Positions 32,199 through 36,825 of a stretch of 60,706 nt of DNA are shown here, one piece after another. The position numbers and the translations under genes are program-made. Under the pieces are notes generated by a model. The model searched no databases and had not been told where the DNA came from. It saw nothing but the letters and a program-made list of their open reading frames with translations. The DNA lies in the NCBI GenBank assembly GCA_026389535.1, contig JAPLHR010000046.1, positions 1 through 60,706 of the forward strand, in the 5' to 3' direction. Position 1 is the first letter of the stretch. Every line of letters starts with the position of its first letter. Source of the stretch: Chloroflexota bacterium (GTDB lineage: Bacteria > Chloroflexota > Limnocylindria > Limnocylindrales > Limnocylindraceae).

Positions 32199-34745
32199 TT
32201 ACTTGCGCAGGCTTTGTGGCAACACAGGAAGCTGTCGCGCTGGGTCGTAGCGTCGCCCAGCAACGGTGTTCTCCCAGTTAGCTTCGCCGCGAATGAAGGT
32301 GGCCTCCGACGTGCGCTCGAGCTTCGAGAGGGCGATGAGGTCAATCATCGGCTCGCTGCGATCGGTGTGTGCGAGCTCAAAATCAAATCCGCTGCGAAGC
32401 GCATCGTATGGGCAGGCGTCAACACAGATGCCGCAGAGGATGCAGCGCGACTCGTCAACTTCAAACTTGGCAAGGATTCGTGGCTTCGGCATCAGCGCGC
32501 CAGTTGGGCAGGTCTCTGCACAGCGGCCACACGAGACGCACGGTGACTCATTCAAGCTCATGTCGAGCGGTGTAGTAACGAGCGTGTCAAAGCCGGTGCG
32601 CATGAAGTCGTAGCAGGCGGCACCCACGACTTCGGCGCAGACGCTGGCGCAGCGTCCGCAGTCGATGCAGCGTGATGGCTCACGCAGAATGAATGCGTGT
32701 GAGTCGTCGCGGATGTAGTCGTGGTTTGCGCCTGTCCAGCGGTTTTCGGTAATGGAGCGGAACCCGGCACCACCGTGATGCTCTTTCTCGAGCGTCTTAA
32801 GTGTTGTGCCGTATTCGATACCGAGGCGTCGTAGATCACAGAAGCCGATCGCCTCGCAGGTGCACTGCAGGCAGCGCGTGCTCTCCGCCATCACCTCGGG
32901 CTTGGTATACGGAAGCTCGTACTCGATGTAGTCATTCTTGCGATCTTCAGCTGGGAGTGCCTTCATGCGCAGGCGTGGCTCCTTCACCTCGGCGGTGAAC
33001 GGCACGATGCTCAAGAACTCTGGCTGTGGCTCTGCGAGTGTCTGCCGGTTGCGAATCTCCGAGAGGTCGAGCCCTTGCAGGTATGCATCAACCGCGTAGG
33101 CGCAGCGTCGACCATCGGCGATCGAGGCGACGACGGTTGTTGCGCCGTTGCGCAGGTCGCCGCAACCGAACACGCCGTCGCGGCCAGACTGGAAGGTGAC
33201 AGCGTCCGCCTTCATTCGTCCGTTCTTGGTGGTGGCGACTCCGTCGGCGCCAACGCTCGCCCAGGTCATGTCGGGGCCCTGGCCGATCGCCTTCAGGATG
33301 CGATCGCACTCGATAATGAACTCCGTGCCAGGAGCTGGCTCCGGTCGTCGGCGGCCTGATGCGTCGGGGGCGCCGAGCTGCATGCGGATGAATTCGAGGC
33401 CGATCACCTTGTTGTTCGCATCGGTGACGACGCGGGTTGGACCTGCCTGGAAGATGGCGCGTGCCCCCTCCTCGATCATCTCGTGGACCTCGTCGGCGGC
33501 CGGCATGTCCTTCATGTCGCGGCGGTAGACGAGGGTGACCTCCTTGGCCCCCTGACGAATGCTTGTACGCGAGCAGTCCATCGAGGTGTAGCCGCCGCCG
33601 ACCACAACCACACGCGTCCCCTCGTGCCCTGGGTAGGTGAGGCCGAGAGCAGCGGTGTGTAGGTAGTCGAGGCCGTCGATGACGCCGTCGGCGTCTTCGC
33701 CTGGAATGCCGAGGTCGTTCGTGTCGTAGCAACCGATGGCAACGACGACGCCGTCGTAGCCCTGCGCCTTCAGGTCGGCGACGGTGAAGTCGCGACCGAG
33801 CATCTTGCCGCACTCAAAGCGTCCACCGAGTCGCGTGATCGACTGGTACTCACCATCGAGCACCTCGATCTTCGGCAGGCGGTACTGCGGAATGCCGTAG
33901 CGCAACATGCCGCCTGGCTCAGGGTCTTTCTCGAAGACGGTGACGTCGTGTCCGGCAACGAGCAGGTAGTACGCGGCCGATGCGCCGGCTGGACCCGAAC
34001 CAATGACGGCGACGCGCTTACCAGTCTTCGGCTGCAGCTCAAACGGCACTGGCGGGTCGAGATCTTCGTCCCACATTGCCTTCAACACCTGATCGCCGGC
34101 GTAGCGGTGGCTGTCACGAATTGCGATCGCCTCGTCAACCTCGTCGCGACGGCAGTGATCCTCGCATGGCGCCGGGCAGACGCGCCCGAGGATGCTTGGG
34201 AATGGAATGGTGCGCTTGAAGATGCGTGCCGACTCGCGGAACTGCGACTCTGCGTTCGCCTTCAAGAATCCAGGGATGTCAATGTGGCTCGGGCACTTGT
34301 TCTGGCAGGGTGGCAAGCAGTAGGCGTTGTGGTCGCTAAAGATCAGCTCAAGGTTGGTGCGGCGAATCTCGCGAATGCGATCGGTCTGCGTTGCTACGAC
34401 CTGTGCCGGCTCCGCCTTCGCTGAACAGCTAATAGATGGCTGATCGCACCCTTCGACATCCACCACGCACATGCGGCAGGCGCCGAATCCTGGAAGCTTC
34501 GGGTCATAGCAGAGCGTTGGCACTTCGATGCCGTTCGCGCGGCACACTTCAAGAATGGTCTGCCCCTCAAATGCTTCGAGTTTCTGCCCGTCAATCTCAA
34601 CGTAGAAGGTCGGCGTGCGCTGTGGGCGCTGTGGGCTGCGCGTGGTGAGCAGCTTGTCGACGGCGACCTCTGCCGATGGTGCTGCGGTGATCGCGCGCGA
34701 GACTGGTGTCACTGCGCTTGCCGGTCGATCAATCAGGTCGGCCAT
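32199..34745 (-). CDS. Chimeric Fe-S flavoprotein: NuoG-type [2Fe-2S] domain + GltD-like NAD(P)H/FAD oxidoreductase + [4Fe-4S] domains + NuoI C-terminal-half-like tail
   Basis: aa 46-135: FYVEIDGQ...[16 protein letters not shown]...SC. aa ~135-560: GltD pattern ([55 protein letters not shown]). aa 620-755: [40 protein letters not shown]. aa 756-848: [24 protein letters not shown]..DFELA. Confidence 0.85.
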   Translation of the reverse strand: [848 protein letters not shown]

Positions 34746-34747
34746 GA

Positions 34748-36007: not shown

Positions 36008-36825
36008 GCGGCGTACCTGCCGGCGAGGGCGGCGGCCCAGCTGGCGGCATTCTTGGCGCTCAGGTCGCGCTGCGGCTCACCATCAATGACCACCAGCGGC
36101 GACGGGGCGCCGAGCAGGTGGTTTGGGAGCGACTCGAGGCGCAGGTTGCTCCATGGGATCGCTCGGCCGAACTCGGTGCCGAACTCGTAGCTGAGGGTGC
36201 CCATCACCGAACCCGCCCCCGAGACGAGGCAGTTGGCACAGCGGCAGACGGCGATCGAGCGGGTCACCCCTGGCTCAAAGGCGAGGTGCTTATAGAAGGT
36301 GGCGGTGCCGTAGACCATGGCGTACCAGGCACCGGTCGCGCCGCTGACGCGCTTCAGCGCGTCGACGGGGAGGTAGCCGTATGCCCCCTGAATCGCTTCA
36401 AGGATCGCGAGCATGTGGTGCGGGTCGTAGTCGTGCGCTTCGAGGATCTCGTCGACCTTCGCGATGTTGATGGTTGCCCCTGTTGCCGCTGCAGCGTCGG
36501 AGACGGCGCGACCGGAGCGGCGCATCGCCGACTCTTCGCGACGCTCGGCGTACTGCTCGGCGGGGCCCCAATGCACCGCGAAGCGCCCCTTCGTGTCGGT
36601 GCCGCCCATATCAATGCACTCGATCGGACAGGCCTGCGCGCACTGGAAACAGGTCTCGCACTTCAACGTTCCGTGTTCATCGGTGACGAGTTCAAGTCGG
36701 CCGCGATTGCGCGGAGCGATGTCGGGCTTCACCTCTGGATACAGCACGGTGCGCTTCGGCTGGAAGAAGCGCGTCAGCGTGAGGCGCATTCCCGAAACGA
36801 GGCCGGCGCCAGGAATTCGTGGCAT
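36004..36825 (-). CDS. Fusion protein: NuoI N-terminal half (one 4Fe-4S motif) + NuoE-like thioredoxin-fold domain
   Basis: Track ORF 36004..37101 trimmed to ATG 36823-36825, just after the nuoH stop. aa 1-75: LTLTRFFQPKRTVLYPE...CETCFQCAQACP. aa ~118-273: NuoE-like (MLAILEAIQGAYGYLP, GTATFYKHL, AVCRCANCLVSG). There is no second CxxCxxCxxxCP motif. Confidence 0.85.
   Translation of the reverse strand: MPRIPGAGLVSGMRLTLTRFFQPKRTVLYPEVKPDIAPRNRGRLELVTDEHGTLKCETCFQCAQACPIECIDMGGTDTKGRFAVHWGPAEQYAERREESAMRRSGRAVSDAAAATGATINIAKVDEILEAHDYDPHHMLAILEAIQGAYGYLPVDALKRVSGATGAWYAMVYGTATFYKHLAFEPGVTRSIAVCRCANCLVSGAGSVMGTLSYEFGTEFGRAIPWSNLRLESLPNHLLGAPSPLVVIDGEPQRDLSAKNAASWAAALAGRYAA

Follow-up and report, generated by a model that had tools for sequence, protein, structure and literature searches.

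A complex I operon of Limnocylindrales bacteria in which nuoI is split by a transhydrogenase-like flavoprotein cassette

Complex I is known in a canonical form of 14 subunits (NuoA-N; Nqo1-3 and Nqo9 of Thermus thermophilus, NuoE, NuoF, NuoG and NuoI of Escherichia coli), and NuoI is, to our knowledge, described as a single core subunit, conserved throughout complex I and its hydrogenase relatives. Here we describe a nuo operon from a freshwater Chloroflexota bacterium of the Limnocylindrales, a Candidatus Limnocylindrus (contig JAPLHR010000046.1 of assembly GCA_026389535.1, positions 1 to 60,706; below, this whole 60.7-kb stretch is the window) in which NuoI is encoded in two parts. The operon lies on the minus strand at 26.4-41.0 kb and reads nuoA-B-C-D-H-X1-X2-X3-J-K-L-M-N, where X1 (36004..36825, 273 amino acids, aa), X2 (34748..36007, 419 aa) and X3 (32199..34745, 848 aa) stand between nuoH and nuoJ. 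As in the canonical enzyme, none of the membrane and Q-module subunits is missing, NuoE, NuoF and the N-terminal Fe-S portion of NuoG each have a homologue in the input module, and NuoI is recognisable over its full length once its halves are joined. The locus differs in that NuoI is in two pieces on two polypeptides and that the EFG-type genes lie inside nuoI, between nuoH and nuoJ, rather than between nuoD and nuoH. In addition, the G-like subunit lacks the molybdopterin-like domain and has a GltD domain for flavin adenine dinucleotide (FAD) and NAD(P)H, the ligand sets of clusters N1a and N3 are altered, and X2 and X3 stay under the equivalog cut-offs for NuoF (TIGR01959, 318 bits, cut-off 558) and NuoG (TIGR01973, 81 bits, cut-off 470, over X3 aa 49-183 only).

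The backbone nuoABCDH(I)JKLMN, with nuoD adjoining nuoH, is shared with the 11-subunit enzymes (Nuo11, cyanobacterial NDH-1 and Fpo), and an NDUFAF7-like gene lies beside the operon, as was reported for the actinobacterial 11-subunit case (bioRxiv 10.1101/2021.02.01.429150). However, those enzymes have an intact NuoI, NdhI or FpoI and ferredoxin or F420 input modules encoded elsewhere, whereas in the present case NuoI itself incorporates a flavoprotein module. Mbx-like operons (Degli Esposti 2015, PMC4758237; PRK13984) likewise have a GltD-type NAD(P)(H) domain and a NuoI-type ferredoxin at the NuoI position, and both X3 and the N-terminal half of a distant variant (P0209) match PRK13984. In the Mbx-like case the two form a single fusion protein within a hydrogenase-derived complex, for which NAD(P)+ reduction was proposed (PMC4758237); NuoE- and NuoF-like subunits are lacking there, and the ferredoxin fold is unsplit.

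In the full-text literature searched (among it the Stn and Nfn-Bfu structure papers, the Bfu-family survey, a complex I genome survey and several Limnocylindria genome papers; subscription-only papers excluded) we came upon neither a split NuoI nor a nuoI that encloses a module with GltD. This agrees with an earlier inspection of the same DNA made without database searches (the sequence-only reading), whose author knew of no described complex I with such an architecture. The nearest published ideas are Nuo-Bfu, considered below, and the Mbx-like operons with a GltD-related protein at the NuoI position (PMC4758237); what appears to be new here is a complex I in which a core subunit is split and the dual-flavin input module putatively derives from Stn.

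The N-terminal half of NuoI occupies aa 1-88 of X1 (36562..36825, minus strand), which contain the NuoI-specific N-terminal segment, the YPE motif, the first Cys motif and the first strand of the hairpin between the motifs. Residues 12-77 match positions 1-65 of 121 in the NuoI model TIGR01971 (45.4 bits, expectation value (E) 5e-12), PRK05888.1-1 scores 59 bits, and X1 matches the N-terminal half of NuoI profiles only, over aa 10-80. The CxxCxxCxxxCP motif (C56, C59, C62 and C66) is accompanied by C70, and X1 has no second motif of this kind. The C-terminal half is found at aa 753-800 of X3 (32346..32489, minus strand), with the second hairpin strand, the second Cys motif (C768, C771, C774 and C778 followed by Pro), which is the third and unpaired motif of X3, and the DFELA tail. 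Scanned alone, the last 95 residues of X3 match TIGR01971 at positions 72-117 (44.9 bits, E 8e-12), again as one half only (C-terminal, aa 756-802). NuoI and NdhI models rank at the top for this isolated piece, and generic Fer4-type families reach at most about 25 bits.

Joined, the two halves cover TIGR01971 positions 1-117 of 121 with 95.5 bits, approximately the sum of both parts, and match the NuoI, NDUFS8 and Nqo9 chains of the PDB end to end (E about 1e-20). An hhalign comparison of ten joined sequences with intact NuoI proteins gave a probability of 99.7% (E 7e-26, 127 columns, 31% identity), and the match is colinear across the X1/X3 junction. Four intact NuoI candidates (P0350-P0353), found in a homologue search with the joined halves of the distant variant L084 described below, served as an alignment control; P0350 is encoded in a canonical nuoG-H-I-J context. 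All eight Cys and the YPE and R.RG motifs are in register with these intact proteins. The break is at the tip of the hairpin that separates the Cys motifs: the NuoI part of X1 ends ...DTKGRFAVHWGP and X3 resumes thereafter, at a position that we take to correspond to DGRWYPE/FFRINFSRC in E. coli NuoI. The sequence content of NuoI is complete but is spread over two polypeptides.

The sequence-only reading had claimed that X1 begins like NuoI with one Cys motif and no second and then continues into a NuoE-like thioredoxin-fold domain, and that X3 ends with the second NuoI motif and a DFE(L/M)A tail. The profile matches given here bear out each of these statements, TIGR01971 being the best family for the isolated X3 piece. 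Two alternatives that it had raised fail: the X1 N-terminus does align with NuoI, and a generic ferredoxin origin of the X3 C-terminus is ruled out, the NuoI models outranking the generic Fer4 families by about 45 to about 25 bits. As far as sequence analysis goes, the split of nuoI in the loop between its two Cys motifs is confirmed. Past the canonical NuoI region aligned here, X3 extends into a less conserved C-terminal tail (aa 801-848; 32202..32345, minus strand), in which 7 of 48 columns are invariant; its length varies across the lineage, with EPMIDLIA, a Trp and, as an alignment of chimeras shows, LPVLP near the end as conserved elements.

The split is not confined to one genome. A scan of one genome per GTDB species detected a relative of X1 in at least 543 species-representative genomes; the best 80 of these at least 543 are all Chloroflexota metagenome-assembled genomes (MAGs), mostly labelled Limnocylindrus or Limnocylindrales, and the window is 99% identical to Candidatus Limnocylindrus MAGs. 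The gene order A-B-C-D-H-X1-X2-X3-J-K-L-M-N was found in every fetched locus of sufficient length, apparent swaps in related loci being due to overlapping stop-to-stop open reading frames (ORFs), and both fusions recur with it. Every Cys of both NuoI halves is invariant (in 69 sequences for X1), as are both Pro, and the motif of the C-terminal half ends in [AV]CPYDALR in 60/60 full-length X3 homologues. Invariant columns amount to 42/88 in X1 aa 1-88, 30/48 in X3 aa 753-800 and 97/133 in X3 aa 620-752; the NuoI halves are among the most conserved segments, above the NuoE-like domain and the tails. The split-nuoI layout is a lineage-wide architecture rather than the oddity of one genome.

An assembly artefact, in which a normal nuoI and a separate EFG-type operon were joined by misassembly or frameshift, can hardly be entertained in view of this distribution. 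The same ORFs and junctions occur in about 60 loci of unrelated projects (short-read MAGs, a single-cell assembly, contigs of 0.2-3.7 Mb), more than 100 full-length X1 homologues have 270-279 aa at 56-95% identity, and the fusions are repeated in variants at 30-40% identity. Since these assemblies come from many projects and technologies, frameshift and misassembly are excluded for practical purposes, and the ORFs are native, as they had seemed from their junctions. Named X1 homologues are labelled NuoE, HndA or FdsG (formate dehydrogenase gamma), and their precomputed Pfam matches consist of PF01257 only; in metabolic reconstructions of these genomes, nuoI is thus likely to be listed as absent or complex I as incomplete.

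Between the two NuoI halves lie, in translation order, a linker and three flavoprotein-module components. The linker, X1 aa 89-124 (36454..36561, minus strand), begins AEQYAERREESAMRRSGR... and contains ERREES..RR.GR, which is invariant or nearly so (alignment A1). It is followed by a NuoE/HoxE/StnA-like thioredoxin-fold domain (X1 aa 125-273; 36007..36453, minus strand), which matches PF01257 over aa 125-261 (64.9 bits) and scores 41.6 bits with the NuoE model TIGR01958, under its cut-off of 142. The four-Cys set of N1a in NuoE (C-x4-C ... C-x3-C) is incomplete: C194 and C199 are kept and the second Cys pair is lost. C194, C196, C199 and H236 are invariant in 69/69 sequences, suggestive of a Cys3His site or of one altered in another way. 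Three distant variants (P0209, P0225 and L088) retain the canonical four Cys in this domain.

X2 is a NuoF/HydB/StnB-like subunit for flavin mononucleotide (FMN) and NADH (PF01512, PF10531 and PF10589), reduced to the core: it has neither the N-terminal 2Fe-2S nor the C-terminal 2x[4Fe-4S] domain and contains four Cys in its 419 aa. Its best PDB matches are HydB, NfnB and StnB at about 300 bits, compared with about 229-243 bits for NuoF, and the alignments cover only the core of HydB/StnB, for example residues 147-511 of 584 in 8oh5_B. The GRGGGGF and GEET motifs are present. At the N3/B1 site, C336-GKTIP-C342 (C-x5-C), Thr stands where CxxCxxC has its middle Cys; C382 and H384 are invariant and C331 is found in 25/27 sequences. 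The variants L084, L088 and L089 have the canonical CGKCVPC or CSKCVPC at this site.

X3 begins with a [2Fe-2S] domain of the NuoG/HydA/StnC type (aa 49-125; 34371..34601, minus strand; PF13510, 61.9 bits) with invariant C79, C90, C93 and C107. The next domain (aa 139-560; 33066..34331, minus strand; PF14691 and PF07992; PRK12814, 544 bits) is GltD/NfnB-like, with two [4Fe-4S] sites, the FAD and NAD(P)H Rossmann folds and a YRR motif that is kept and aligned with StnC. A 4-Cys site (C625, C628, C630 and C636) and a complete 2x[4Fe-4S] ferredoxin domain (C693-703 and C736-746) follow at aa 620-752 (32490..32888, minus strand; PF22117 Fer4_Nqo3 and Fer4 families) and align to StnC residues of about 560-680; the C-terminal half of NuoI begins 22 residues after the last Cys of this ferredoxin domain. 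A Pfam scan gave no Molybdopterin match in X3, and the molybdopterin-like domain of NuoG is thus absent. Altogether, X3 aa 49-779 align to StnC residues 6-701 in 8oh5_C (472 bits) and to residues 6-700 in 9bov_A (550 bits), and also to 9n5u_A, the NfnA of an archaeal NfnABC. X3 ends 69 aa past the StnC-aligned region, and the NuoI C-terminal half and tail stand where StnC has its FdhF-like domain.

By similarity, the inserted module is closest to the Stn/Nfn-ABC (Bfu-family) transhydrogenases. The sequence-only reading had described it as an E/F/G-type cassette: an in-frame cassette of three flavoprotein genes inside nuoI is indeed what we observe, but its kinship is with Stn/Nfn-ABC and not with NuoEFG proper, and the GltD FAD/NAD(P)H domain of X3 had not been mentioned. 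StnABC and NfnABC (PDB 8oh5, 9bov and 9n5u) are built in the same way from three subunits, one NuoE-like, one NuoF-like and one with 2Fe-2S, GltD and NuoG-like Fe-S domains. They are, however, soluble tetramers, with no membrane complex known to bind them (PMC10482914, PMC12018979). StnA has no NuoI N-terminal half; StnB carries a 2Fe-2S domain at its N-terminus and, at its C-terminus, a ferredoxin-reducing 2x[4Fe-4S] domain, both of which X2 lacks; StnC has an inactive FdhF-like domain of about 470 aa (aa 683-1172) that mediates tetramer formation, and X3 is without it. In a local alignment, X3 aa 762-779 fell on the first Cys motif of that FdhF-like domain; we took this as a by-product, the alignment running on, because NuoI-specific flanks (DFELA) are present.

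In the Stn enzyme of Sporomusa ovata electrons pass along FAD-C7-C6-C5-C4-C3-B1-FMN, and the branch to the FdhF-like domain (clusters C2 and C1) is a non-functional remnant (PMC10482914). The end of this branch is missing in X3 and the C-terminal half of NuoI stands there instead, from which we infer a link to NuoI. In bifurcating Bfu enzymes the branch that reduces ferredoxin is formed by clusters B2-B5, especially B3/B4, which non-bifurcating relatives do not have (Schut et al. 2022, PMC9304861; Xiao et al. 2025, PMC12018979). X2 lacks the ferredoxin-reducing B3/B4 domain, and the Limnocylindrus enzyme is therefore probably a non-bifurcating NAD(P)H:quinone oxidoreductase.

It might be argued instead that a true bifurcating or confurcating Bfu/Stn enzyme is mounted on complex I and couples ferredoxin, NAD(H) and NADP(H) to quinone reduction. 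X2 and X3 are after all nearest to the bifurcating HydB/StnB/NfnB and StnC/NfnA, the BfuB-type subunit of a Thermoleophilia variant (L088) is complete, at 643 aa, and complexes of this type, named Nuo-Bfu, were predicted in other phyla (Schut et al. 2022, PMC9304861). The predicted Nuo-Bfu resembles our system in having a BfuABC-type module in place of NuoEFG in the middle of a nuo operon and in being a presumed proton-pumping quinone reductase. Yet it is a 14-subunit Nuo(A-N) of Deferribacteres, Proteobacteria, Planctomycetes and Nitrospirae, neither a split NuoI nor a GltD domain is mentioned and the name NuoI is absent from the text (PMC9304861), and bifurcation is predicted there, whereas X2 is without the B2-B5 clusters. 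For the Limnocylindrus enzyme we regard bifurcation as unlikely: the B3/B4 ferredoxin-like and N-terminal 2Fe-2S domains missing from X2 constitute the low-potential branch (PMC12018979, PMC9304861), the C1/N1a site of X1 is altered, and the Ellin6529/Limnocylindria group was described as aerobic (bioRxiv 10.1101/2021.02.01.429150).

More distant variants came to light when representatives clustered at 50% identity were searched and a profile search was then made, and in them the fusion of the NuoI N-terminal half to a NuoE-like domain is also present, at only 30-40% identity. In L084 (1321-6023) nuoH is followed by the fusion protein, with a canonical four-Cys NuoE, a 1048-aa protein, a 265-aa HoxU-like protein and nuoJ-N. 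The 1048-aa protein consists of a 2Fe-2S domain, NuoF and GltD, with GltD at the C-terminus, and it is the HoxU-like protein that carries the C-terminal half of NuoI and ends CIYCGLCVESCPHDAL..DYELA. L088 (10001-15181), from a Thermoleophilia MAG, has the order A-B-C-D-H, fusion protein, BfuB-type protein, an 831-aa StnC-like protein with the NuoI C-terminal half, and J-N. Its BfuB-type subunit is complete, with the N-terminal 2Fe-2S and the C-terminal 2x[4Fe-4S] domain, and for this reason the L088 enzyme might bifurcate. Loci L085, L086/L087 and L091 and the short P0140 contig agree as far as they reach. When the variants were scanned with NCBIfam models, all N-terminal pieces fell on NuoI positions 1 to about 70 and all C-terminal pieces on about 70-115. 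In the four variants read, 22 residues separate the CPTG motif of the ferredoxin domain that comes before the NuoI C-terminal half from the first Cys of that half, and this constant spacing argues for a single ancestral fusion, with the flavoprotein domains reshuffled later.

One variant stands apart from the nuo operons. L089 (9425-14431, on Ktedonobacterales-like contigs) is a stand-alone cluster of four genes with no membrane nuo genes within 10 kb, encoding a NuoB-like protein of 187 aa (CC...CP), a 228-aa protein with the NuoI N-terminal half and a Cys-less NuoE-like domain, a NuoF-like protein of 438 aa, and an 804-aa StnC-like protein with the NuoI C-terminal half. The family of 228/246-aa NuoI-N/NuoE-like proteins is numerous, and one member is labelled Ktedonobacterales. 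The L089 cluster may have been derived from the split-NuoI module as a soluble form, or it may represent its precursor. It also lends some colour to the idea that X1-X2-X3 is a soluble NAD(P)H oxidoreductase or transhydrogenase that is encoded in the nuo operon and does not dock to complex I. We consider this very improbable for the operon-borne cassette, however, as in nuo operons it stands always exactly at the nuoI slot with translationally coupled junctions. Moreover, X1 keeps the N-terminal segment (aa 10-45, with YPE) that is specific to NuoI of the complex I type and not to generic ferredoxins, and an operon deprived of the cassette would miss the N6a/N6b link to N2.

We think it likely that the complex I of Limnocylindrus carries an input module for NADH/NADPH that is stapled on by way of a NuoI ferredoxin fold made of two chains. 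On this view a three-gene flavoprotein cassette of the Stn/Nfn-ABC (HydABC/Bfu) lineage would have entered an ancestral operon of 11 genes (nuoABCDHIJKLMN), in frame and at the surface hairpin between the nuoI Cys motifs. The resulting proteins are X1, composed of the NuoI N-terminal half and the NuoE/StnA-like domain, X2, the NuoF/StnB-like FMN core, and X3, the StnC-like protein with the NuoI C-terminal half. In a 2x[4Fe-4S] ferredoxin fold each cluster is bound by three Cys of one motif and the Cys-Pro cysteine of the other; neither NuoI half should therefore bind a cluster alone, and the halves would have to pair across X1 and X3. Such a reassembly into one ferredoxin fold, which the sequences and textbook ferredoxin architecture together suggest, would rebuild N6a and N6b at the usual place of NuoI on NuoH, NuoB and NuoD. 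It would also close a ring from the NuoI N-terminal half through the E-like domain, the F-like subunit and X3 to the NuoI C-terminal half, and the input module would be tied covalently to the Q-module at both ends.

By homology with Stn and complex I, electrons are expected to flow from NADH and NADPH to quinone. NADH may reduce FMN in X2 and/or NADPH may reduce FAD in the GltD domain of X3; both flavins would feed the Fe-S chain of X3, from which electrons would pass to its C-terminal 2x[4Fe-4S] domain, to N6a/N6b, to N2 in NuoB and to quinone, with protons pumped through NuoL, NuoM and NuoN as in ordinary complex I.

In favour of the stapled complex, the halves are complementary and together colinear with NuoI, they fill the syntenic nuoI slot between nuoH and nuoJ, and they are strongly conserved; the distant variants repeat both fusions, and X2 and X3 match the Stn-type module. 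Several points weigh against it. Neither X1 (42-45 bits) nor the X3 C-terminus (45-50 bits) nor even the joined sequence (95.5 bits) attains the curated NuoI cut-off of 113 bits. Models of X1 aa 1-88 joined to X3 aa 753-848, made with AlphaFold2, had a confidence (predicted local distance difference test, pLDDT) of 35.1 in single-sequence mode and of 35.8 when four intact NuoI sequences were supplied, too low for either to be usable. Loss of the middle Cys at the N3/B1 site of X2 and of the second Cys pair in the NuoE-like domain makes the cofactor content uncertain, and the putative substrates (NADH, NADPH or both) are read from homology. The tether between the NuoI N-terminal half and the NuoE-like domain, about 25-40 residues long, may by our own estimate be incompatible with the geometry of the canonical N-module; being so short, it may mean that the module sits differently from that one.

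A hidden Markov model (HMM) built from the halves and run against the six-frame translation found no further NuoI-like ORF in the 60.7-kb window, the range that the search spanned; nor does this stretch contain another nuo operon, and the earlier claim that no other nuoI candidate lies between nuoH and nuoJ holds. Many Chloroflexota have more than one nuo cluster, and it could be supposed, also in view of the missed family cut-off, that the half-motifs are vestigial or serve as docking peptides and that NuoI function is supplied by an intact nuoI elsewhere in the genome. This seems distinctly improbable to us. All eight ligand Cys and both Pro are invariant and the halves are better conserved than the NuoE-like domain and the tails, which is not expected of vestigial motifs; the operon has every other core gene and no nuoI, and the split is retained in lineages that are only 30% identical.

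If the halves pair as proposed for the stapled complex, this conserved natural split would show that the N6a/N6b ferredoxin fold can be made from two chains. It would also represent an alternative route by which an 11-subunit enzyme could gain a nucleotide-oxidising module, unlike the insertion of nuoEFG between nuoD and nuoH, and it would link the Stn/Nfn-ABC (Bfu) family, known as soluble transhydrogenases of anaerobes, with aerobic respiration. The predicted enzyme is a proton-pumping complex I with an NADPH/FAD site; for a lineage of which hundreds of species have sequenced genomes, this would alter the view of how the NADPH and NADH pools feed respiration. A broader proposal, toward which we lean slightly less than we doubt it, is that the two-chain ferredoxin acts as a covalent double staple that turned an 11-subunit complex I into a dual-flavin (FMN and FAD) proton pump oxidising NADH and NADPH. 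Running backwards or between its flavins, this enzyme could act as a membrane-linked NADH/NADPH transhydrogenase; it may be the main respiratory entry in Limnocylindria, and the Thermoleophilia form may retain a ferredoxin-linked bifurcating branch.

All ten core subunits other than NuoI (A, B, C, D, H, J, K, L, M and N) are encoded in this one cluster and match above the Pfam cut-off, all on the minus strand. Ahead of the cassette stand nuoA (40629..40985; PF00507, 108.8 bits), nuoB (39931..40659; PF01058, 102.7 bits, match from aa 108), nuoC (39379..39930; PF00329, 129 bits), nuoD (38165..39376; PF00346, 284 bits) and nuoH (36828..38168, 446 aa; PF00146, 335 bits, aa 61-438). Behind it follow nuoJ (31635..32195; PF00499), nuoK (31318..31638; PF00420), nuoL (29365..31314; PF00662, PF00361 and PF01010), nuoM (27857..29368; PF00361) and nuoN (26421..27860; PF00361). 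The NuoB translation shows the pattern CC...C...CP, including PGCPPRPE, which we take to be the ligands of cluster N2 (CC...C...CP and GCPPRPE).

At the nuoH/X1 junction the TAG of nuoH is separated by 2 nucleotides (nt) from the ATG of X1, with GGAGG upstream of this ATG; X1 and X2 overlap in ATGA, the X2/X3 gap is 2 nt and the X3/nuoJ gap is 3 nt. The operon order and the tight junctions (ATGA overlaps, gaps of 2-3 nt) that the sequence-only reading had reported can be read directly from the ORF coordinates and junction sequences, and the gene coordinates and Pfam matches equally uphold its statements that nothing lies between nuoD and nuoH and that the backbone is otherwise of the 11-gene type. 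An in-frame upstream ATG, which would give an X1 of 365 aa, was rejected as the start because all homologues begin at the same Met.

Both NuoH and NuoB are enlarged. The 298-position Pfam profile of NuoH is spread across 378 residues and its match begins at aa 61, pointing to an insertion as well as an extension at the N-terminus, and NuoB has an N-terminal extension of about 100 aa. These extensions are also found in related loci (NuoH 446-463 aa, NuoB 237-251 aa), and the L084 and L088 variants are without them (NuoH 321-372 aa). The gene immediately upstream of nuoA (41058-42362, minus strand) encodes an NDUFAF7/MidA-like S-adenosylmethionine (SAM) methyltransferase (PF02636, 121 bits), and the same family stands upstream of nuoA in two related loci (L001 and L002); NDUFAF7 is a complex I assembly factor in eukaryotes.

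Directly downstream of nuoN lie five genes (19833-25897, minus strand), encoding a CDP-alcohol phosphatidyltransferase (25226-25897), a myo-inositol-1-phosphate synthase (23887-25197), two acyltransferases of the Lip_A_acyltrans family (21838-23903) and a GT4 glycosyltransferase (19833-21299). The set resembles a phosphatidylinositol-mannoside lipid pathway, which is better known from Actinomycetota. Near an 833-aa ORF with no Pfam match at E <= 1e-5 (50505-53003, minus strand) there is a gene for a 1441-aa protein (45027-49349, minus strand), in which PMT-family (protein O-mannosyltransferase-like) domains are confined to the C-terminal third.

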